A stretch of 60,944 bases of DNA, filler included. It is 3 parts of 3 records of this genome, joined end to end, with 100 filler letters (N's around TTAATTAATTAA, not from the genome) between each part and the next. Parts side by side here need not be neighbours in the genome. Positions count along the whole stretch, not along the records: positions 1 to 28,486 come from SRR31156797_2667; 2 more parts are not named here. The stretch is one strand, 5' to 3'. The position numbers and the translations under genes were made by a program. Of the stretch, positions 2,837 to 27,241 are shown one piece after another; the first letter of the stretch is position 1, and every line of letters begins with the position of its first letter. A model generated the notes under the pieces. The model did no database searches, was not told the origin of the DNA, and worked only from the letters and a program-made list of their open reading frames with translations.

Positions 2837-3898
2837 ATGAATACCTTTTTATATCATTTAGGTTTTTGCGACGAAGTACTTCATCAGAAAACACTATCAC
2901 CTGATTTTAAAGTCGCCAGAGTTATTTCAGAACATAAAGAAAGATATACGGTAAAAAACGAACTTGGAAATTTTGATGCCGAAATAATGGGAAATTTAAG
3001 ATTCTCGGCACAAAGCAGAGCTGACTTTCCGGCTGTTGGAGATTGGGTTTCCATTAGCATCTATGATGCTAACAAAGCTCTAATTCACGAAATTCTGTAC
3101 CGAAAAAATAAACTTCAACGTAAGTCGATTGGTAAAGAAAGTGACCAACAAATTATTGCTACAAACGTGGATTATGCATTTATTGTAGAAGGAGTCAATC
3201 GCGATTTTAATATTAACCGCCTGGAACGATATATAACCATTTGTCTGGATGCTAAAATTACACCTATTGTAGTGATCAATAAAATTGATTTATGTAGCGC
3301 TGCTGAATTAGAGCAAATAAAAAAGGATATCCACGAACGGATTCCACTTTATCAGCTTTTATTTACCAGTTGCAATAGCTTTGAAGGCATCGATACACTT
3401 AGGTCAAATATATTACCTGAGAAAACCTATTGCTTTTTAGGCTCTTCGGGAGTTGGAAAATCTACTATGATCAATCAACTTATCGGAGAAATACAATTGA
3501 AAACAAGTGCTATCAGTCAGAGCGTAGACAGAGGAAAACATACCACATCTCATAGAGAGTTATTTGTGCTTAAAGATGGTGGTATTGTGATCGATAATCC
3601 CGGAATGAGAGAAGTGGGGATCGCCAATGCTGATCAAGGCTTAAAAAATAGTTTTAACCAGATTCAACAATTAGCTGAGCAATGTAAGTACAGTGATTGT
3701 ACACATACGCACGAAAAGGGCTGTGCTGTTCTGGAAGCGATCGATAGCGGAGAATTAAATGCAGAAAGCTACCACAATTATATAAAATTGTATAAGGAGC
3801 AACAGCATTACGAATCGTCGGTAACAGACAGAAAACGAAAAGAAAAGAATTTATCGAAATTGATAAAACAGGTAAAAACCAAAAGACCTGATAAATAA
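2837..3898 (+). CDS. rsgA: Ribosome small subunit-dependent GTPase A (long paralog type)
   Basis: PAVGDWV, NKID, GSSGVGKST, GKHTT, IDNPGMRE and CxxxDCxHxxExGC Zn motif. Confidence 0.95.
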   Translation: MNTFLYHLGFCDEVLHQKTLSPDFKVARVISEHKERYTVKNELGNFDAEIMGNLRFSAQSRADFPAVGDWVSISIYDANKALIHEILYRKNKLQRKSIGKESDQQIIATNVDYAFIVEGVNRDFNINRLERYITICLDAKITPIVVINKIDLCSAAELEQIKKDIHERIPLYQLLFTSCNSFEGIDTLRSNILPEKTYCFLGSSGVGKSTMINQLIGEIQLKTSAISQSVDRGKHTTSHRELFVLKDGGIVIDNPGMREVGIANADQGLKNSFNQIQQLAEQCKYSDCTHTHEKGCAVLEAIDSGELNAESYHNYIKLYKEQQHYESSVTDRKRKEKNLSKLIKQVKTKRPDK

Positions 3899-4009
3899 AT
3901 TGAAATCGATAAAGCAGATGGATATGGTTTCCTGTTCAGCTATCTTTTTTACTATTTTTGCCACTTCAATGGGAAGTGGCTTTACATTAACAATTAAAAA
4001 CAAGAACAA

Positions 4010-17952: not shown

Positions 17953-19297
17953 TCCATCCACAAACAACAAAAAGATGTTTAATAAAATTCAAATATTGGT
18001 AGTCCTTGTTTTATGTGGACTACCTTCCTTAAAAGCGCAGGAATCTTTTGATAAACTGAACTTGGATAAAGCCATACAAACGGCTTTGGAGCATAATTAC
18101 GATTTAAAAATTGCGAAAAACCAGTTGCAAGCTGTTCAAAATAACAATAGTATAGGCAATGCTGGAATGTTACCATCTGTTTCATTAAGTGGTGGAGCCA
18201 GCTACGGTGTAAACGATACCGAAAGCGAAACGGCTACAGTAGTGATTAATCAGGATGATGTTGAAACAACACAATACAATGGAAGTGCACGCGTTGATTA
18301 TACTTTGTTTGATGGTTTTGGAAATCGTTATACCTATAAAAAACTGAAACAATTAGATGCACAGCAACAGGTGATATTCAAACAACAAATGGAAATGACG
18401 ATTTTGCAGGTTGTTCAATTATATTACCAGGCATGTAGCGCACAACAAAACTTAAAACTGGCTAAAGAATCAATGCAGATATCAACCGAGCGTTATATAA
18501 AAGCCGTTGATCGTAAAAAATACGGTCAGGCCAATACACTGGATGTACTCAATGCCGAAGTAGATATGAACAGCGACAGCACACGCATCTTAAATACAGA
18601 GCAAACTTACCTGATGGCTATTAAAGATTTGAATGTAGCTTTAGGTATTCCTGTAGAAAGTGAGTACAGTGTTATTGACGATTTGAGTTTTGATAAAATT
18701 TTCAATCAGGAACAAGTGGTGGAAAAAGCTCTTGCAAACAATACAAGCTTACAAACTCAGCTTCAACAGGAAGAAATTACTCAATTGGATTTAAAGCTGG
18801 CCAAAGCTGGTCGATACCCAACTTTATCGGCTTATGGTGAATACAGCTACAGTCAGGTAGAAAACAGTGCCGGTTTTACTTTGTACAATAAAAGCAATGG
18901 TATAAACAGTGGACTTTCATTACGATTTAATGTATTTAACGGGCAACAACAACGCACCAAGGTAAAAAATGCCAAGCTTAATGTTTTAAATGAACAAGAA
19001 AGAACGCAATTGGCAAAATCAGAACTGGAGAGAGATGCCATTAATGCCTATACTGATTATACGTATAAAAAGCGCATTGTAGATTTACAACAAAGCAGTC
19101 TGGTGCAAGCCGAACTTAATTTTGAGCAAACTAAAGAAATGTTTAAACTTGGACGTGTAACATCTATCGAGTTCAGAACAGCTCAGCAAAACATGCTTAA
19201 TGTGGCTAACAATTACAATGATGCCCGTTTTAATGCCAAAGTGTCTGAATACAATTTAATGCAGATTACCGGAGAATTACTTGGTTTTAACGAGTAA
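17942..19297 (+). CDS. TolC family outer membrane efflux protein
   Basis: L..AI..AL..N, LPSVSL, YTLFDG, VFNG repeats; start may be 17975. Confidence 0.9.
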   Translation: MKSNPSTNNKKMFNKIQILVVLVLCGLPSLKAQESFDKLNLDKAIQTALEHNYDLKIAKNQLQAVQNNNSIGNAGMLPSVSLSGGASYGVNDTESETATVVINQDDVETTQYNGSARVDYTLFDGFGNRYTYKKLKQLDAQQQVIFKQQMEMTILQVVQLYYQACSAQQNLKLAKESMQISTERYIKAVDRKKYGQANTLDVLNAEVDMNSDSTRILNTEQTYLMAIKDLNVALGIPVESEYSVIDDLSFDKIFNQEQVVEKALANNTSLQTQLQQEEITQLDLKLAKAGRYPTLSAYGEYSYSQVENSAGFTLYNKSNGINSGLSLRFNVFNGQQQRTKVKNAKLNVLNEQERTQLAKSELERDAINAYTDYTYKKRIVDLQQSSLVQAELNFEQTKEMFKLGRVTSIEFRTAQQNMLNVANNYNDARFNAKVSEYNLMQITGELLGFNE

Positions 19298-19328
19298 TGA
19301 AAAACTGAAAAAGAAACAAATCTACAAA

Positions 19329-20372
19329 ATGAGAAACAGCGATTTAAAAGTTTTAATGGTGCCTTTGGTGGTATTACTGGTAATATCTTCCTCATTAATC
19401 ATCATGTTGTTAACAGGGTATGCCAATATCGATCAGGTGATACACTTTATGCCCTTGGGAAAAATCATTACCATCGTAGCGCATGCTTCCATCGTTGTTT
19501 CGGTTTTTTATTTTGCAATATCCTTTTTCAATAAAAAAATTCCGTGGAGTAAAATATGGACACTTCGGCTTTTAGCTGATATTGCTCTTGTTATCACTTT
19601 ATCATTTATAGGCATATCCTCATTACTGTATCTTGAAAAGTTAAAGCTATTTCCCATGAGAATGCCACATGGAGGTCGGGAACTGTTGTACATTGTTCCT
19701 ATAATGATGAATTCATTATATCTGGTTTTGATAGAAACAATACTGGCTATGAATGAGCGAAATCAACTGGCCAACAAGCTTCAGAAAATTGAAGAGCATC
19801 ATCTTAAAATGAAATATGGCGCATTGAAAACGCAACTAGATCACCATTTTCTGTTTAATAACCTGAGTGTGCTTTCTTCCATTATTTATGAAGATGTGGA
19901 CAAAGCCGACCGCTTTATTACAAAGTTTGCACAGGTTTATCGTTATGTGCTATCTATTAATAAAAGAGATTTGGTTTCGCTGGAGGAAGAAATAGAGTTT
20001 ATTAAAAGCTACTTATTATTATATAAATTCCGATTTGAGGAAGGCTTTGATTATCACATTAACATTGAAAGTGAAAAGCTAAAGATGCAGATTCCTCCGT
20101 TGACGCTCCAGGTGCTGGTTGAAAATGCTATTAAGCACAATATGGTGTCCCGAACAAATCCTTTGCAGATTGATATTTTAAATGAAGGAGGAATTCTGAA
20201 AGTAAAAAACAACCTGCAAAAAAGAGAAGAACCTTTGTCGGATTCCACGCATACAGGACAATCTAATATTTGCGAAAAATGCGAATTATTAAACGTAGCA
20301 TTACCTGTTATTGAAGTCAATGAAGATAGTTATTCAGTTGCCATTACCTTAATTCCTGCGGATCATGTTTAA
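19329..20372 (+). CDS. LytS/YehU family sensor histidine kinase
   Basis: LKTQLDHHFLFNNL, YRYVL, IPPLTLQVLVENAIKHN; N-terminal TM helices. Confidence 0.9.
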   Translation: MRNSDLKVLMVPLVVLLVISSSLIIMLLTGYANIDQVIHFMPLGKIITIVAHASIVVSVFYFAISFFNKKIPWSKIWTLRLLADIALVITLSFIGISSLLYLEKLKLFPMRMPHGGRELLYIVPIMMNSLYLVLIETILAMNERNQLANKLQKIEEHHLKMKYGALKTQLDHHFLFNNLSVLSSIIYEDVDKADRFITKFAQVYRYVLSINKRDLVSLEEEIEFIKSYLLLYKFRFEEGFDYHINIESEKLKMQIPPLTLQVLVENAIKHNMVSRTNPLQIDILNEGGILKVKNNLQKREEPLSDSTHTGQSNICEKCELLNVALPVIEVNEDSYSVAITLIPADHV

Positions 20373-21135
20373 AGTATTAATAGTTGAAGATGAAATGCCA
20401 TCGGCACGTAAGTTAAATGCTCTGGTCAATAGTATTGCGCCGGATTTTGAAGTGATAGACATTCTGGAATCCGTTCAACAAACCGTGGATTTCCTAAAAT
20501 CTACTCAGGTTGATTTAATCTTTCTGGATATTCACCTGTCGGATGGAAACAGCTTTAGCATTTTTGAACAAGTTACGATAGATACGCCTATCATCTTCAC
20601 AACGGCTTTTAATCAATATGCTATAGAAGCGTTTCAACAAATGAGTATTGATTATTTATTAAAACCGTTTGAGAAAGAGCGTCTGTCGCAGGCCATTGAA
20701 AAGTTCAGAAGAATTTATAGTATTCAACAGGAGCAAAACCAGTTTGATTACCAGCAATTAACGCAGCTTATTCAATCCAACTTACAGCAGAATGAGTACC
20801 AGGAACGTTTTATGGTGCAGTACCGGGATAAAATTAAAACTGTAAAAGTAGATGACATTGCCTCGGTATATGCCGAAAACAAATCGGTATTTATTACCAC
20901 TTTTGATGGGCATAGTTACGATTTACCGAATACGCTGGAACAGTTGGAAGCAAAGCTAAATCCAAAATACTTTTTCCGAGCCAACAGAAAATGTATTGTG
21001 CATATTAAAGCTGTGAAGGATGCGGTGGTCTATTCCAAGAGTAAACTAAAAATAAACCTCGAACCGGCATTACCTTTTGATGTTATTATTTCTACGGAAA
21101 AAACACCTCGTTTTAAACAGTGGTTGAGTAAATAG
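20365..21135 (+). CDS. LytTR family response regulator
   Basis: IVEDE, FLDIHL, DYLLKP, FFRANR. Confidence 0.95.
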   Translation: MFKVLIVEDEMPSARKLNALVNSIAPDFEVIDILESVQQTVDFLKSTQVDLIFLDIHLSDGNSFSIFEQVTIDTPIIFTTAFNQYAIEAFQQMSIDYLLKPFEKERLSQAIEKFRRIYSIQQEQNQFDYQQLTQLIQSNLQQNEYQERFMVQYRDKIKTVKVDDIASVYAENKSVFITTFDGHSYDLPNTLEQLEAKLNPKYFFRANRKCIVHIKAVKDAVVYSKSKLKINLEPALPFDVIISTEKTPRFKQWLSK

Positions 21136-22735: not shown

Positions 22736-25732
22736 TTATATCTTTTTAATTACCTCTAATACCAGCGGTGGTACAGAAGGCATACCCGTGTTAGACGCTA
22801 CTTGGTTATACAATTCCGCTAATTGTACTCCATAATCCCTGCCTTTACGCATTAGTTTTAAACCTTTATGAATGGTGGAATTCTCATCACCCAAATCATA
22901 AATAAAACCTTTTAACCTGTTTTTTGATTTAGCTGGTAAGTTTTTATTTGATTTATTAGTAACTTCTAATTCTACCGCAGCTTTTTCTGCCTTATCAATA
23001 TCCTTAAGTGCTACTTCATATTCTTCTTCCTCCATTCCTCCTTTTAGTAATAGCTTTTTCTCATCCTCAAAATCTTCTTTTAGATTTTGAACCTCGCCTA
23101 ACATATTGGAGATTGACAAATTGATTGTGTTCGTGTTTGAATTACTATTATTATTATCAACATTAGTACTGATAGTAGAGTTTCCAATATTTTGTAAATT
23201 TATATTTATAGCTTCTTTACCTTTATTCATTGCTTCAAACTGTTTATTAAGTTCTTCTGTGTCAATTATAGAATCTAATAACTTACTTGTATGGATCATC
23301 TCTCCACTATTTTTACACTGTGAAAAAAATTGTTTTTTATAAGCCATTTTTTCTAGATCAGTTCGATTGTGAAAATAAGGTGTTTTAATATCAGAACACT
23401 CTATGCAAATACAAGGTATTTGTTCATCTATTACAAGATTAGGGAAAAGAATCTTTTTAATGTGGAATATTTCAGTTCGTATTTCTGCAAGCAAGTTCTT
23501 TCTTTGTAAAAGATCTCCATAAATTGATATTTCAAAAACTTCATCTCCACTTAACGTATCCTTATAATGCTCTAGCTTACCAAAACATTTCGAATCTTCC
23601 CTTAACCAGACTCCTGTTAGCCAAACGTAATCTTTCCAAATTTTATCGAATAATCGAACTATTAGACGACTAAAAAAACCAAATGGCATAAAAGGAAATT
23701 TAAAACGCAGAATATATGGAGAGTCAGCAATTATCTCAGGTTCTTTTGCAATATTATTAATTAAAACTGGGACTAAATAATTATCACTTCCTTCAACTTT
23801 GTAACAGACCTCAAAATGATCTTTTAGCAATAGGTTTAATAGGTTTGTTCTTTCTGTTACTTTATATCTTTTCTTTTTCCAAATAGAGTTTATCATTTCT
23901 TGAGAAAAACGACCTCTATTTTCACTTGTATAATGCTCTTCTTTGAAAATTTCGTAAAGCCCTTTTGTAATCCACTCCGGGTCTATAAATATAGTACTTC
24001 GTAACGATCGGTCTTCGTAATGCAAAGCATAACCTAACCAATGTAAATACTCCAAACATTGTTCTTGATGCTTGTTTTCCTCTAAACCATAGGCTTCACA
24101 TATTTTAATGAATTCATCGTATGATATGTATGACTTTTTGTCATTTTTAATATCTGTAATCGTTTTCCGTATAGGTTTCCATTTTTTGGGGATTTCTTGG
24201 TTAACTCTTGGTAAGTTTGACAAATTTTCTTGTATAGTTTGAATTAAATTTGTCCAACGGTTATCATTCTTTTTAAAATCAACGTCAATAGATGAAATGT
24301 ATAGATTAGGAAACCGATCTTTATATTCATTAATATTTAATGATTGACCAGCAGAAACTCTTTCTTTTTGATTACGAACAATAATTACAAAACTTTCTTC
24401 ACATAAACGAGTGATCATTTCGAACCAATAATCGAAACGATATTTTTCAGCACGATGGTCGCAGACAAGTATAAAAAGATTATCCTTGGCATAAAAGTAC
24501 TGATGTAAATAATTCTGTGTATCCTGTCCCCCAAAATCCCAAATTGAAGCCTTTATATCTCCTCCCTTTGTATGCTTAAATATTCTTTCTTGATTAATGT
24601 TAATCCCATGAGTAGATCCTTGTTTAGCATCAGGCACTTTAACTTTACCCTCTTTTAATTTTTTAAATAAGGTAGTTTTTCCAGCACCTGATTCACCTAC
24701 TATTATTACTCTAGCCTCATGTAAAGTTTCCGTACCCTCTTCTAACTGTTCAAAATAGTTTAGAATTGCTGTCGTTCCATTTTCCACAATGTGCATTGGA
24801 GGCTTAGTTATTGGATTATTATATAAATCTATATTTCCTCCTCCAAATATTTTAATATTGATTTGTAATCCATTTTCTATTAAAGGAACTAGAAAACTTA
24901 TATCATTCACTTTATTTTCTCTAAGATCAACATTAGTAAGCTTTGTTAACTTTTCTAAAAAACTAATACTATTAATTTGGTTTGCTCTTAAATCCAGTGA
25001 TTTCAGTTTTTTTAGATTCTGTAAAAAACTCGCATTGCTTATTCTATTAGAACTTAGAAATAAAGTTTCAAGATTAATTAGTTTTTTGAGAAAACTGATA
25101 TTGCTTATTTTATTAGAACTAAGATATAATTGAATTAAGCTATCTAGATCCTTTATGGGGCTCAAATCCTGAATATTATTTTCCCGTAAATCTAATGACG
25201 TTACACAATTTAAACTCTTAAGAAAGCTTAAATCTGAAATTCCATTTTCTCGAAGATTTAATACACTTATTTTTTTTAAATGTGAAAGGTAAGTTGTGTC
25301 ACTTATATCATTAGAGCTTAAATCTAAAGATTCCAGATTTGTTAATTTCCCAAGAAAACTTAAATCAAGTATTTGATTTGAACTTAAATCTAAGGTTGTT
25401 AACGCATTAATATAACCTAAAACACTACAATCCTTAATATGCCATTTTTGGTTATAGTTTCCTCTAATTCTTAAAGTATGTAAGTCTTTCAAATTCCTAA
25501 ACTCACTTGGCAAAACACTAATTAATATATAGTTAGTCGTACCTTTACTTTCCCAATGAACCCATTTCTTTTGTTTACTATCCCAATATTGGTTACATAT
25601 ATTTAATTCCTCCAGCCATTCTAACTCAAATAACTCTTTAGGAAAATCGGTTAATCCGCAATTTCCAAGATCCAGCTTTCCTGTTTTTTCCTGTTTTTCT
25701 TTTTCAATCAGTTCTAATGCAGCCTGGCTCAT
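22736..25732 (-). CDS. Prokaryotic Roco protein: LRR-ROC GTPase-COR, then CxC/CxxC segment, Asn-rich linker and helical C-terminal domain
   Basis: LxxLDLSSNxI repeats; GESGAGKT, STHGI, WDFGGQ, LHQYF; COR features (LH.LG..LHY, DPEW, MPFGFFSRLIVR). Confidence 0.9.
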   Translation of the reverse strand: MSQAALELIEKEKQEKTGKLDLGNCGLTDFPKELFELEWLEELNICNQYWDSKQKKWVHWESKGTTNYILISVLPSEFRNLKDLHTLRIRGNYNQKWHIKDCSVLGYINALTTLDLSSNQILDLSFLGKLTNLESLDLSSNDISDTTYLSHLKKISVLNLRENGISDLSFLKSLNCVTSLDLRENNIQDLSPIKDLDSLIQLYLSSNKISNISFLKKLINLETLFLSSNRISNASFLQNLKKLKSLDLRANQINSISFLEKLTKLTNVDLRENKVNDISFLVPLIENGLQINIKIFGGGNIDLYNNPITKPPMHIVENGTTAILNYFEQLEEGTETLHEARVIIVGESGAGKTTLFKKLKEGKVKVPDAKQGSTHGININQERIFKHTKGGDIKASIWDFGGQDTQNYLHQYFYAKDNLFILVCDHRAEKYRFDYWFEMITRLCEESFVIIVRNQKERVSAGQSLNINEYKDRFPNLYISSIDVDFKKNDNRWTNLIQTIQENLSNLPRVNQEIPKKWKPIRKTITDIKNDKKSYISYDEFIKICEAYGLEENKHQEQCLEYLHWLGYALHYEDRSLRSTIFIDPEWITKGLYEIFKEEHYTSENRGRFSQEMINSIWKKKRYKVTERTNLLNLLLKDHFEVCYKVEGSDNYLVPVLINNIAKEPEIIADSPYILRFKFPFMPFGFFSRLIVRLFDKIWKDYVWLTGVWLREDSKCFGKLEHYKDTLSGDEVFEISIYGDLLQRKNLLAEIRTEIFHIKKILFPNLVIDEQIPCICIECSDIKTPYFHNRTDLEKMAYKKQFFSQCKNSGEMIHTSKLLDSIIDTEELNKQFEAMNKGKEAININLQNIGNSTISTNVDNNNSNSNTNTINLSISNMLGEVQNLKEDFEDEKKLLLKGGMEEEEYEVALKDIDKAEKAAVELEVTNKSNKNLPAKSKNRLKGFIYDLGDENSTIHKGLKLMRKGRDYGVQLAELYNQVASNTGMPSVPPLVLEVIKKI

Positions 25733-25922
25733 GCTTGGGTTTATTTAGTTATTATTATTTACTTTAATTTGTAGCTACCATCCTTTTGTTAATTAAACGC
25801 TTGATGATAAACAAACACTACACTTCCATAAAGAAGACTTATGTTACCTGCATAAAAGTATAAAAAAGTAGGCGTAAAATGTTATGTTTTACAACAGGCA
25901 CACTGATTTAAGCTAGTTCCGT

Positions 25923-26245
25923 CTTCTAATACCACTATGCACTTTACAATATCCTTTCCTGTAAATTTTAAAGGGCAATGCAATTTGCAACAAGGCGTTT
26001 TTTATTTCGGAAAGAGCAATGCAGCCTGCAAGAGACAAATAATTAAAAATATTTGCTTCTCGTAGTCTACATCTCGTTTTCCGATTTTCAGAAAGCTTCT
26101 TGCACTGTGCAAAGCCACCTTATTTTTTTCGGAATGCTTCTCGTTGTACACATTGCCTGTTCTCTTTCTTCGGAATGCATACTACAAAGTGCATTGGGGC
26201 ATCAATATATTATACCAGATCGTTGCAGAGTGTATAGGGAAATCG
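25923..26245. repeat. Eight-unit 41-bp-period degenerate array with palindromic TGCA-N3-TGCA core
   Basis: Cores at 25938, 25979, 26020, 26061, 26101, 26142, 26183, 26224; TTCRGAA precedes four cores. Confidence 0.75.
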
Positions 26246-26497
26246 CTTTAACTTTATAATGCAATTTTATTGCTTTCTCGCATCCTTTTATTCCCTAAAG
26301 AGAGCTGTGCGGCGGGACTCTTTTAGGAGATTTAGAGGTAAGCGAAGGCAATTATGGCTTAAAAACAAATTCCCTCTCCTAAACAACAATAACAATGTGC
26401 TTAGCAAAATTAAATAGGCAGCCGTGCCATAATTTAACTTAATATGCTTATATTGTAAATGACGCTTTATTAAAATCTGCCTAATAACTAAAGTAAA

Positions 26498-27241
26498 ATG
26501 TTTGAAAAAATAGACCAAAGAGCTCTACGTAATAATGAGTTTGTTCAGTTAACCGATAACCTGACCACCATTATTGAGAAACACGATCCGGTTCAACTTC
26601 AATTTGAACCTGCCTTTACTCCTTTCAAAGAAAAATCGCTGGAACTAAGCACCTTTTTTAAACAAAGACAAGGTAGCAAAGTAACCGAAAAGCTTGCCTT
26701 ACTGGATGACAGAAGAGATACTGCCATCACTGGAATTTCATCTGCGGTAAAAACCTTTACGTATCACTTTGATCCAGACAAAAAGGCTGCTGCCCTTTTA
26801 TTATCGAGGTCACTCGATTTTTATGGTGGAAGCATTGCCCGCTTAAACTATAGTGCCGAAACCAGTACTTTAAAAGATTTAATTGAGAAATGGAAAAATG
26901 AACCTGAATTAAGCCAGTCTGTAACCACATTGGAGTTAAGCAGCTGGCTGGATGAGTTGGAACAAGCTAATAATTTATTTAACGAAGTGTTTATAGACAG
27001 AGTTGAAGATAAAGCTTCGAACCCTGGAATCAAGATCAAAGATTTAAGATCAGATATGGGAGAACTATATGTTACTTTGTTTGATCACATTAAGGCTTGT
27101 ACTATTATTTATGGCGAGGATAATTATAAAGTTCTGATTAAAGAAATAAACACCTTGCTAGAAGAATACAATACTATTTTAAATAATAGAAAAAGTAATA
27201 CGGAAGAAACTGTTGAGGAAACTTCTGAAAATATAGAATAA
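26498..27241 (+). CDS. DUF6261-like (HagB-like) all-helical protein
   Basis: LRNNEFVQ, LDDRRD.AI, LNYSAET, WLDELEQANNLF, IKEINTL pattern; acidic tail. Confidence 0.75.
   Translation: MFEKIDQRALRNNEFVQLTDNLTTIIEKHDPVQLQFEPAFTPFKEKSLELSTFFKQRQGSKVTEKLALLDDRRDTAITGISSAVKTFTYHFDPDKKAAALLLSRSLDFYGGSIARLNYSAETSTLKDLIEKWKNEPELSQSVTTLELSSWLDELEQANNLFNEVFIDRVEDKASNPGIKIKDLRSDMGELYVTLFDHIKACTIIYGEDNYKVLIKEINTLLEEYNTILNNRKSNTEETVEETSENIE

Follow-up and report, generated by a model that had tools for sequence, protein, structure and literature searches.

Helically phased arrays of operators or iterons placed before the genes that they regulate form a recognized class of repeat, and BIME arrays, which are palindromic and alternate in symmetry, serve as a supercoiling sink or gyrase target. 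REP sequences have been proposed to act in supercoiling, termination and mRNA stability (PMC3733652, excerpt). In the sopC centromere of plasmid F, a direct repeat of 43 bp occurs 12 times, and SopB binds a 16-bp inverted repeat within every copy (PMC3177203, excerpt). In type III toxin-antitoxin systems (toxI/toxN, cptIN, tenpIN), short tandem repeats specific to the protein lie directly upstream of its gene, with repeat lengths of 31-62 nt (Table 2 of PMC3401426, excerpt) and 1.9-5.6 copies. Guide arrays have periods of 60-79 bp in CRISPR and 18 bp in TIGR systems (10.64898/2026.10.21.760802, excerpt).

Here we analyze an array of eight degenerate units that lies upstream of a DUF6261 gene in a stretch of DNA of 60,944 bp (“the window”). 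They represent, in worn form, a family of 41/42-bp tandem arrays found together with DUF6261 genes across Bacteroidota: 54/54 related DUF6261 loci, a count covering the relatives reachable by two peptide patterns in a search from a 4-sequence alignment, carry such an array just upstream of the gene, in 2 to 24 copies. Array and gene are thus a conserved pair, as the initial annotation had supposed in calling them an uncharacterised module; the search for comparable arrays beside other DUF6261 genes, set in advance as the test that could refute this, had the opposite outcome. The array is undescribed in the literature that we searched (on tandem repeats, non-CRISPR arrays, Chryseobacterium palindromes and type III toxin-antitoxin systems of Bacteroidetes), where DUF6261 is mentioned only in Streptococcus work and PF19775 was not found. 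The consulted parts of two 2026 preprints on the mining of noncoding elements (10.64898/2026.10.21.760802 among them) contain no 41/42-nt array, and their supplements could hold one.

In geometry the array resembles sopC: in both, direct repeats follow one another in tandem at about four helical turns (43 versus 41/42 bp), with an inverted-repeat motif in each unit, in many copies and beside the system's gene (PMC3177203, excerpt). Beyond this repeat geometry, however, the ParB/ParA partners and the partition-needing replicon of a sopC-type centromere were not found. Neither the window nor the neighbours in the related loci include a ParB/SopB-like protein or a ParA-type ATPase, the DUF6261 locus is chromosomal and without plasmid or phage homologues, and its units hold two to four dyads with cores that vary between loci. 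Type III toxin-antitoxin systems, too, place short, protein-specific tandem repeats of comparable length directly upstream of a gene. Among the criteria of PMC3401426 (excerpt), one was found here, the tandem repeat itself (by autocorrelation and TRF); a terminator and a ToxN, CptN or TenpN toxin were not. Of 49 gaps separating array from gene, three have a terminator-like hairpin, compared with a mean of 1.4 in shuffles, and the window has none; DUF6261 is all-helical, acidic and unrelated to these toxins; and its arrays reach 24 copies and give no strand-specific RNA signal.

Operator and iteron arrays share with the DUF6261 arrays repeated dyad or direct sites on one DNA face, upstream of or overlapping a promoter, and the Chryseobacterium arrays adjoin an XRE repressor gene. 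The DUF6261 array differs in its long unit (41/42 bp), its very high copy number in some species, its variable distance from the gene, and the 35/54 loci that lack a linked regulator. REP and BIME elements are likewise extragenic imperfect palindromes able to form tandem arrays with alternating symmetry, but REPs are dispersed, numerous in each genome and associated with no single gene family, whereas the present array is tied to DUF6261 and has no second copy in the 61-kb window (covariance model R1). CRISPR and TIGR guide arrays also pair regularly spaced, partly palindromic repeats with an associated gene. The initial annotation had set CRISPR aside, and we concur in rejecting it: the period is 41/42 bp, unique spacers are absent, and no cas or Nop-domain gene occurs among the 43 window ORFs scanned against Pfam. 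In an Rfam search of 25500-26700 (E <= 10), the best match, CRISPR-DR50, scored 23.3 bits against a gathering score of 47.

Table 1. Coordinates of the array, its units and the adjoining features in the window.
Feature	Position	Strand	Evidence or remark
LRR-Roc-COR (Roco) protein gene	22736-25732	-	
Tandem array, eight degenerate 41-bp units (one spacing 40 bp)	25922..26248	.	Sequence, autocorrelation, profile; homologous arrays in 54/54 related loci
Unit 1 dyad TGCACTTTACA	25938..25948	.	TGCA-N3-TGCA type
Unit 2 dyad TGCAATTTGCA	25979..25989	.	Exact TGCA-N3-TGCA; bases 5 and 7 also complementary
Unit 3 dyad TGCAGCCTGCA	26020..26030	.	Exact TGCA-N3-TGCA
Unit 4 dyad CGTAGTCTACA	26061..26071	.	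Unit 4 resembles an inverted unit 3
Junction block TTCAGAAAGCTTCT (GAAAGCTTCT)	26087..26100	+	Directly 5' of unit 5 dyad; matches the family's most conserved block, GAAAGCTTCC-TGCA
Unit 5 dyad TGCACTGTGCA	26101..26111	.	Exact; best-preserved unit
Unit 6 dyad CGTTGTACACA	26142..26152	.	Degenerate
Unit 7 dyad TACAAAGTGCA	26183..26193	.	
Unit 8 dyad TGCAGAGTGTA	26224..26234	.	
Non-repetitive gap, array to DUF6261 start codon	26249..26497	+	
DUF6261 gene, 247 aa	26498..27241	+	Pfam PF19775, E 6.5e-38

The eight 11-nt dyads reported initially, with starts from 25938 to 26224 and spacings of 41, 41, 41, 40, 41, 41 and 41 bp, were confirmed from the sequence (Table 1), and their periodicity is significant against shuffles. 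Over 25923-26260, the autocorrelation at lag 41 is 0.434 versus 0.268 +/- 0.026 in shuffles (z 6.5), and lags 82 and 122 give 0.379 and 0.361, respectively; 0/2000 dinucleotide shuffles reach 0.434 at any lag from 5 to 129. A profile built from the eight units recovers exactly those eight. In-phase positions on both sides of the array do not score above the shuffled null on this profile, and a longer array was rejected on that basis. A 17-nt segment at 26286-26302 resembles 26000-26016 and is in phase. TRF misses the window array with default penalties; with relaxed penalties it reports a period of 41, 3.1 copies and 59% matches at about 26054-26178.

The motifs are likewise concentrated in the array. 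Exact TGCA-N3-TGCA occurs at four sites in the window, three of them inside the array, compared with 1.19 expected window-wide. The TTCRGAA element proposed to precede four of the dyads was borne out, as all four TTCRGAA-N7-YRYW sites of the window (26006, 26087, 26128 and 26169) fall in the array, those at 26006, 26128 and 26169 being the starts of junction blocks equivalent to that of unit 5. The family core, GAAAGCTTCC-TGCA-N3/4-TGCA, appears in unit 5 as GAAAGCTTCT-TGCACTGTGCA, with close variants in units 3, 6 and 7; model R1 recovers unit 5 only (26075-26114 on the plus strand, 22.4 bits, E 0.0075). The inverse relation of units 3 and 4 extends over arms of 38 nt (26007-26044 and 26047-26084) that are 71% complementary, and unit 4 is 66% identical to the reverse complement of unit 3. 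In the window, the TGCA-N3-TGCA dyads and the junction block have been kept and the remainder has decayed. The second palindrome is reduced to TTTCGGAAA or TTCRGAA, with its centre 16 bp (not ~20.5 bp) from the dyad, and the remaining stems are only 4 bp, hence too short for stable hairpins.

The 54 related loci come from Marinilabiliales, Chryseobacterium/Epilithonimonas, Flavobacteriaceae and a Chitinophagaceae MAG, and their DUF6261 proteins are 30-46% identical to that of the window; cultured carriers include Thermophagus xiamenensis DSM 19012 (24 units), Saccharicrinis aurantiacus and Chryseobacterium species such as C. gambrini and C. soldanellicola. We counted as a member any array of at least two tandem units that repeats every 41 or 42 bp and directly precedes a DUF6261 gene, a description that fits the window. 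A blind sliding autocorrelation places the top peak upstream of the gene at lag 41, 42 or 84 in 40/54 loci, and relaxed TRF detects the array in 51/54; the arrays of the other three (L009, L018 and L038) were read by eye. The period is fixed: among 188 unit spacings, 184 are 41 bp (82) or 42 bp (102), and by TRF 17 loci have a period of 41, 33 a period of 42 and one a period of 40. In two loci (L033, L039) it stays at 41 despite internal parts of different lengths. The occurrence of both 41 and 42 bp agrees with the earlier view that the period is non-coding. The 42-bp arrays lack stop codons in some frames and are then annotated as spurious ORFs; a model such as R1 would flag arrays during annotation.

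Most units share the family core, with column conservation of 0.96-0.99 for GAAA, 0.70-0.88 for G-C-T-T and 0.74-0.96 for TGCA. Most relatives also have a second palindrome of the form TTTC-core-GAAA, locus-specific and half a period from the TGCA dyad; two Thermophagus arrays (L004, L007) are without it. The junctions between the two palindromes are themselves near-palindromic, so that dyad axes recur about every 10.5 bp, on one face of B-DNA. Within one genome, paralogues have different palindrome cores: L024 and L026 encode proteins with 84% identity, and most of the difference between their units lies in the TTTC...GAAA core. Copy number differs between orthologues (23.6 in Thermophagus L004, 10.8 in L007). 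Some arrays are homogenised, with 93-96% matches in L004 and L008 and near-identical whole units also in L007, L037 and L042; many others, including that of the window, have decayed to 58-70% matches.

Complementarity within the unit has been kept through two-sided changes and is taken to be under selection. In an alignment of 146 distinct units, the paired fraction of cells is 78.0%, compared with 70.5 +/- 0.6% in shuffles (0/500 shuffles reach the observed value), and the covariation score is 0.287 versus 0.182 in shuffles and at most 0.106 with slid partners. Both sides have changed in 13/14 pairs, and the palindrome arms covary between loci. Within arrays, changes mostly break pairs, and compensation is weak, with a Watson-Crick pair kept in 13/39 double changes versus 6/37 in the slid control. 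Helical phasing was assessed on 51 locus consensus units, 34 of which have two good dyads, with a centre distance of 7.5-11.5 bp in 18 and of 19-21.5 bp in 12.

These signals carry no strand bias of the kind that RNA would give. Mismatches of the G:T and A:C types number 128 and 97 among plus-strand hits and 70 and 47 among minus-strand hits, which is the same lean on both strands, and single changes within arrays comprise 42 G:T and 50 A:C, again with no RNA-type strand signal. The minus strand folds better in 33/51 arrays and the plus strand in 18. Consensus units have a median identity of 0.56 to their own reverse complement, versus 0.46 when shuffled; for 24/52 of them the symmetry is reached by at most 5/200 shuffles, and about half are not significantly symmetric. 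The conserved junction fits better on the plus strand in 33/52 units and on the minus strand in 14 (ties in 5), and in L013 and L054 its orientation is inverted relative to the gene. Several palindromes have no loop or a 1-nt centre (TTTCCGGAAA, CCCCAGCTGGGG, CGCAAGCTTGCG) and so could not, as written, form RNA hairpins. In an Rfam search of five loci with good arrays (E <= 1), the only match on the arrays was mir-503, at 26.4 bits versus 54.

Between array and gene, the window has two -7-like boxes: TAACTTTA at 26249-26256, which had been noted before and is present, and TATATTGT at 26449-26456. The latter lies at -49 and the TATATTTG of relatives at -44 to -46, an analogy by which it may be the promoter of the window gene. 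Of the structured leader of about 240 nt that had also been suggested, the named pairings exist, but the folding of 26255-26497 is not beyond chance (-48.1 versus -45.4 +/- 3.7 kcal/mol in shuffles, z -0.74; 47/200 shuffles equal or better), and we rejected such a leader. In six loci (L002, L037, L039, L043, L048 and L050), an exact TAnnTTTG, the Bacteroidota -7 box, occurs 44-46 nt before the ATG and downstream of the array, so array and gap are probably not a leader there. The distance from array to ATG ranges from about 22 to >800 bp. The Chryseobacterium arrays stop 22-90 nt short of the ATG, and no -7 box was found in between. The array there stands between co-directional genes for an XRE-family repressor and DUF6261, with a canonical promoter before the XRE gene and none visible before DUF6261, and is therefore probably transcribed with the XRE gene. 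Readings of the unit as a sigma-54 or ECF-type promoter were dropped by eye because the spacing did not fit.

An XRE helix-turn-helix gene is immediately upstream of the array in 19/54 loci. The genes flanking the array in the window are Roco and DUF6261-like, as first described (Pfam). A module beside a putative immune GTPase, as the initial annotation had it, is not supported: a Roco homologue is found in 0/54 loci, and the Roco neighbour is coincidental. Linkage to an M50B peptidase, an HD-GYP protein or the 85-aa ORF was rejected on the same count (0/54 each).

DUF6261 is the sole gene family present in all 54 loci. The window protein matches PF19775 at 130.5 bits (cut-off 27) over profile positions 1-154 of 154, and its model is all-helical, with nine helices and a pLDDT of 93.1. 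It has a pI of 4.81 and a net charge of -14; the family has a median pI of 4.95 and a net charge of about -10. The family comprises 2,423 representatives at E <= 0.001. No match at E <= 0.001 was found by Foldseek in PDB and BFVD, a PDB profile search gave 0 matches at E <= 10, and PHROGs gave none. In PADLOC, the window protein and that of L025 were unmatched and that of L004 had weak sub-threshold matches only (E 0.005, 0.09); NCBIfam likewise gave only weak sub-threshold matches (E 0.005-0.09 together with PADLOC). The ESM Atlas offered only unnamed clusters as nearest neighbours (best score 0.88), fusions in the range 551-2000 aa were absent, near-length relatives carry PF19775 only, and source names read only “DUF6261 family protein” or “hypothetical protein”. 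Homologues are absent from 72,556 plasmid and 50,697 phage records.

We tentatively favour, at slightly less than even odds, a reading in which the array acts as double-stranded DNA, with phased binding sites that would control DUF6261. A phased array of protein-binding sites about four helical turns apart was one of the two original proposals, and the fixed period, the dyads near multiples of 10.5 bp, the loopless palindromes and the lack of strand bias speak for it. The constant linkage to DUF6261, the complementarity kept through two-sided changes, the -7 box downstream of the array in six loci, the XRE gene beside the array in 19/54 loci and the survival of dyads and junction block in the window count in its favour as well. 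Judging from the sequence, the dyad pattern would lie on one face of B-DNA and repeat every four helical turns, a dimeric, cooperatively binding factor would assemble on the phased row of sites, and the bound array would govern how the neighbouring DUF6261 gene is transcribed. The promoter would lie downstream of the array in the Marinilabiliales relatives, and in Chryseobacterium the adjacent XRE protein would be the obvious candidate binder. Several observations sit against the DNA reading: the array-to-ATG distance is loose for an operator; the 11 to 24 near-identical units of L004, L007 and L042 far exceed normal regulatory need; paralogue-specific cores call for locus-specific binders, yet most loci are without a linked regulator; the sole always-linked protein is acidic; the Chryseobacterium array is probably transcribed; and within-array compensation and, in about half of the consensus units, strand symmetry are weak. 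That DUF6261 itself binds the array, as initially suggested, is doubtful given its acidity. We consider it quite unlikely that the two form a nucleoprotein platform on the chromosome, much like a centromere-binding protein on sopC or Rep on iterons, with autoregulation as a by-product, even though DUF6261 is the one gene always linked to the array, the geometry is sopC-like, paralogues in one genome (L024, L026) have their own unit variants, and protein and unit divergence correlate (Spearman 0.40 over 1176 pairs). Simple co-inheritance would give the same correlation, and the family has no recognisable DNA-binding domain or fold relative, no plasmid or phage homologue, and no partner NTPase in the loci.

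An RNA partner, in line with the repeat-derived ncRNA that was the other original proposal, is unlikely in our estimate. Transcription of the array, by itself or together with the gene, would yield an RNA, possibly processed into two-hairpin units of 41/42 nt that bind or regulate DUF6261, in the manner of toxI-ToxN or as another ribonucleoprotein. This would suit tandem repeats of type III antitoxin length directly upstream of a gene, with locus- and paralogue-specific units, arms that covary between loci, and probable transcription in Chryseobacterium. Against it are the scarcity of terminator-like hairpins, the lack of a strand-specific wobble signal or folding bias, the reversed core orientation in some lineages, the -7 box downstream of the array in six loci, copy numbers far outside the type III range (PMC3401426, excerpt), the all-helical, acidic protein, which matches ToxN-like toxins neither in Pfam or PADLOC nor by fold, the lack of an Rfam match, and the many arrays, the window's included, that are too degenerate for equivalent RNA units. 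Its bolder form, in which array and DUF6261 would constitute a new protein-plus-repeat-array class, so far restricted to Bacteroidota, whose paralogue-specific two-hairpin RNAs of 41/42 nt load onto or neutralise a helical protein of unseen fold, strikes us as rather improbable; if true, it would be a chromosomal RNA-protein module parallel to, and unrelated to, type III toxin-antitoxin and CRISPR-like systems. There is little likelihood, in our view, that the array acts through DNA structure, as a slippage-prone palindromic minisatellite whose cruciforms or hairpins and copy number (in four-turn steps) tune or switch DUF6261, or as a BIME-like supercoiling sink or gyrase target. The palindrome-dense units, the range of about 2 to 24 copies between species, the differences between orthologues and the near-perfect homogenisation of some arrays would fit, but the GAAAGCTTCC-TGCA block, kept across orders while the stems change, would be left unexplained, and the many degenerate and short arrays are poor slippage substrates. 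A functionless hitchhiker, a neutral minisatellite co-inherited with the gene, would account for the decayed arrays and for within-array changes that mostly break pairs; we regard it as highly improbable, with the array retained in every related locus over Marinilabiliales, Flavobacteriales and a Chitinophagaceae MAG despite low protein identity, the period held in nearly all spacings, the core block conserved and the arms covarying.

DUF6261 is a large family without known function, fold relatives or literature, and the array provides a first functional handle on it, for the branch sampled. At least in that branch, a strictly periodic, fast-evolving palindromic array accompanies its members, which raises the question of what reads the 41/42-bp dyad lattice. 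Should the array act as RNA, the pair would be a protein-RNA array system of a new kind; should it serve as a DNA platform, as we tentatively favour, it would represent unusually regular, helically phased cooperative binding on a chromosome.

The 41-bp array that the initial annotation read between the Roco gene and the DUF6261 gene is exactly as described: its eight dyads are spaced 41, 41, 41, 40, 41, 41 and 41 bp apart, and the periodicity lies far beyond chance. Over positions 25923-26260 the lag-41 autocorrelation reaches 0.434 (dinucleotide shuffles: 0.268 +/- 0.026; z 6.5), with harmonics at 82 and 122; across lags 5-129, none of 2000 shuffles attains this value. Exact TGCA-N3-TGCA occurs four times in the 61-kb window, with three of the sites inside the array, as are all four window sites of TTCRGAA-N7-YRYW. 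A unit profile picks out exactly eight units, the array flanks not rising above the null, and units 3 and 4 are mirror images (38-nt arms, 71% complementary). TRF missed the array at default penalties and detected it when these were relaxed.

Several other features of the window were noted (see table). Its genes, among them DUF4270 and type III glutamine synthetase, look Bacteroidota-like. The strongest periodic signal near the array, at lag 66, corresponds to the leucine-rich repeats of the Roco gene, 22 aa each, and one related locus carries a similar signal. A LytTR response regulator is encoded upstream, and the direct repeats bound by LytTR proteins lie about 21 bp from each other, a distance equal to the half-period of the array. 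Two segments, TTTAACTTTATA and TTTAACTTAATA, are 11/12 identical and 186 bp apart, and may represent a duplicated promoter-proximal segment. The two small ORFs between array and gene are probably not genes, as nothing similar was noticed in the corresponding gaps elsewhere.

Features of the window and of related DUF6261 loci (L-numbers denote loci of about 8 kb from other genomes, with coordinates within the locus)
Feature	Sequence	Coordinates	Strand	Details
His_kinase + LytTR response-regulator pair	window	19281-21135		5 kb upstream
LRR-Roc-COR (Roco) gene	window	22736-25732	minus	divergent from DUF6261 gene
Lag-66 signal	window	24861-25140		autocorrelation up to 0.58
Intergenic region holding array	window	25733-26497		765 bp, between Roco and DUF6261 genes
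11-nt dyads, TGCA-N3-TGCA type (n=8)	window	starts 25938, 25979, 26020, 26061, 26101, 26142, 26183, 26224
TTTAACTTTATA	window	26247-26258		array end
Small ORF	window	26259-26417	plus	52 aa
Small ORF	window	26288-26518	minus	76 aa
TTTAACTTAATA	window	26433-26444		just before candidate -7 box
Candidate -7 box, TATATTGT	window	26449-26456
DUF6261 gene	window	26498-27241	plus	PF19775, E 6.5e-38
XRE-family HTH gene	L010-L053 (19 loci)	e.g. L025 3378-3749	co-directional with DUF6261	115-158 aa, immediately upstream of array
Near-perfect arrays	L004; L008; L007; L042; L037			23.6 copies, 93% matches; 5.7 copies, 96% matches; 10.8 copies; 12.3 copies; 8.9 copies
Spurious array ORFs	L006; L012; L017; others	1292-1600; 3669-4001; 3669-4001		23 in 12 loci
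Perfect-stem hairpin	L004	2800-2860		ahead of first unit
Array-gene gap with repeats	L051	3293-4000		700 bp
IS200-like Y1 transposase gene	L005	469-921		PF01797, E 1.5e-23; upstream of array
66-bp periodic signal	L026	2941-3300

Two conserved peptide patterns, searched for in one genome per GTDB species, matched 54 related DUF6261 loci, none of them from the window's own genome. Comparable arrays lie upstream of the gene in 54/54 loci, a figure that holds for relatives matched by the two patterns in species-representative genomes only: relaxed TRF found a 40-43-bp array in 51, and in the three others (L009, L018 and L038) two to three units can be made out by eye. When each 8-kb locus was scanned blindly by sliding autocorrelation, the top signal lay directly upstream of the gene, at lag 41, 42 or 84, in 40/54. 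The loci come from Marinilabiliales (Saccharicrinis, Plebeiibacterium, Thermophagus, Anaerophaga, Marinifilum, Ancylomarina, Marinilabilia), and outside that order from Chryseobacterium/Epilithonimonas, two other Flavobacteriales and one Chitinophagaceae MAG. Copy number ranges from about 2 to 23.6. The 188 spacings between successive units comprise 82 of 41 bp, 102 of 42 bp and 4 others; because both periods coexist, the repeat cannot be coding, as had been argued from the window. No gene family other than DUF6261 is common to all 54 loci, and none holds a Roco, M50B, HD-GYP or orf85 homologue, so the neighbouring Roco gene, the putative immune GTPase of the initial annotation, is incidental.

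Individual loci show further peculiarities. Arrays with a 42-bp period are open in some frames; the resulting spurious ORFs, 70-140 aa long, cluster together and may be called as genes by automatic annotation. In L051 the array-gene gap contains three copies of a repeat of about 220 bp, each with small hairpins (e.g. ccctacgggactc), which looks like an inserted repeat or MITE-like element, and a Marinifilum MAG contig (L005) carries a transposase gene. The 24-unit Thermophagus array (L004) is preceded by a long hairpin (cgaaagct...agctttcg around tcccgaaacgtcggga) composed of GAAAGCT and CCCGAAA words, as in units elsewhere.

Column conservation, from aligned units (92 plus-strand hits, 40 sources), defines a block of GAAA (0.96-0.99), G-C-T-T (0.70-0.88), two variable bases and T-G-C-A (0.74-0.96), followed by a 3-4-nt loop and a second, less conserved TGCA. 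Half a period upstream lies a TTTC-core-GAAA palindrome whose core is locus-specific while its self-complementarity is kept (CGGG/CCCG, CCGG/CCGG, CGCG/CGCG, CCAG/CTGG, GCGTCA/TGACGC). The block survives in the window (unit 5 is GAAAGCTTCT-TGCACTGTGCA), where the second palindrome is reduced to TTTCGGAAA or TTCRGAA; Thermophagus arrays have lost this palindrome too, yet are the longest. In a model-guided unit alignment, which was fitted to the model's structure and leans towards it, 78.0% of cells pair (shuffles: 70.5%), the score for covariation is 0.287 versus 0.182 in shuffles (reached by 0/500) and at most 0.106 for slid partners, and 13/14 pairs show changes on both sides. Unit junctions are also near-palindromic (GGAAAGCTTCC). 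Two good dyads are present in 34 consensus units, with their centres separated by 7.5-11.5 bp in 18 of these and by 19-21.5 bp in 12. Similarity of a consensus unit to its reverse complement exceeds chance in 24/52 (median identity 0.56 versus 0.46). The ideal array is therefore a strand-symmetric lattice, with dyads roughly one helical turn apart and the pattern repeating every four turns.

The Bacteroidota -7 box has the consensus TAnnTTTG. Six Marinilabiliales loci have an exact match between the array and the gene, 44-46 nt ahead of the ATG; TATATTGT is its candidate counterpart in the window, and we infer that the sequence after it resembles the relatives' 5' UTR. In the Chryseobacterium group (19 loci) the interval between the XRE and DUF6261 genes is taken up by the array, which ends 22-90 nt before the ATG. 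Since the XRE gene has a canonical -7 box ahead of it and DUF6261 has no visible one, the array is probably transcribed there. In L025 and L014 the XRE promoter region combines a TACTTTTG -7 box with an adjacent TTTTCTAAAAGAAAA palindrome that is similar to the array's TTTC...GAAA arms.

The DUF6261 family has 2,423 representatives at E <= 0.001, the closest being 46% identical to the window protein; no locus above 46% was found among 185,579 species-representative genomes, which, judged by this gene at least, appear to include no close relative of the window organism. The protein is predicted with high confidence (pLDDT 93.1, pTM 0.66) to form nine helices, and shows no signal peptide by eye. 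Foldseek against PDB and BFVD (E <= 0.001), a PDB sequence search, PHROGs, and plasmid and phage collections yielded no match; PADLOC and NCBIfam gave weak sub-threshold matches (E 0.005-0.09). We found no fusions, and no Atlas neighbour is named. In the literature searched there is no account of a 41/42-bp array or of DUF6261 function: "DUF6261" is named only in unrelated Streptococcus work, in the part available, and "PF19775" nowhere. Recent preprints on noncoding-element mining place 96.1% of periodic clusters at 60-79, 18 or 5 nt, and the portions of their main text at hand do not mention such an array.

Several tests for the strand asymmetry expected of a functional transcript found none. 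G:T and A:C mismatches stand at 128:97 on plus-strand and 70:47 on minus-strand hits, a lean shared by both strands, as alignment bias would give. Single changes within arrays comprise 42 G:T and 50 A:C, and double changes keep Watson-Crick pairing in 13/39 cases versus 6/37 in a slid control. Folding is better on the minus strand in 33/51 arrays (Wilcoxon p 0.04); the conserved junction fits better on plus in 33 of 52 units and on minus in 14 (5 ties), and in L013 and L054 its orientation is clearly opposite to that of the gene. Some palindromes lack any loop, terminator-like sites occur in 3/49 array-gene gaps versus 1.4 in shuffles, and Rfam returned nothing for the array. What counts against a purely DNA reading is the probable transcription in the Chryseobacterium group, together with an array-to-gene distance that varies from about 22 to >800 bp. 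That the array serves as an RNA partner, as in type III toxin-antitoxin systems, seems unlikely to us; the array lacks the terminator and toxin family that define those systems in the consulted part of PMC3401426.

Slightly less probable still is that DUF6261 itself would bind the array, as SopB does on sopC. The geometry of sopC, as described in the excerpted PMC3177203, is similar, but sopC-type partner proteins and replicon are absent, and the acidity of DUF6261 (median pI 4.95; window protein pI 4.81, net charge -14) speaks against its coating nucleic acid. Divergence of the protein is correlated with that of the units (Spearman 0.40, 1176 pairs), paralogues within one genome have different unit variants, and L024 and L026, with proteins 84% identical, differ mainly in the TTTC...GAAA core of their units; co-inheritance alone would produce this pattern. 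We regard a structural, slippage-prone DNA element as somewhat more doubtful again, and a neutral hitchhiker as very improbable. Judging from the sequences, it is quite possible, and we tentatively prefer, that the array is a double-stranded DNA row of helically phased dyad sites whose bound factor controls DUF6261. The factor assembling on the dyads, and thereby controlling the gene, would be dimeric and bind cooperatively, and in loci that have the XRE gene the XRE protein would be the candidate binder.
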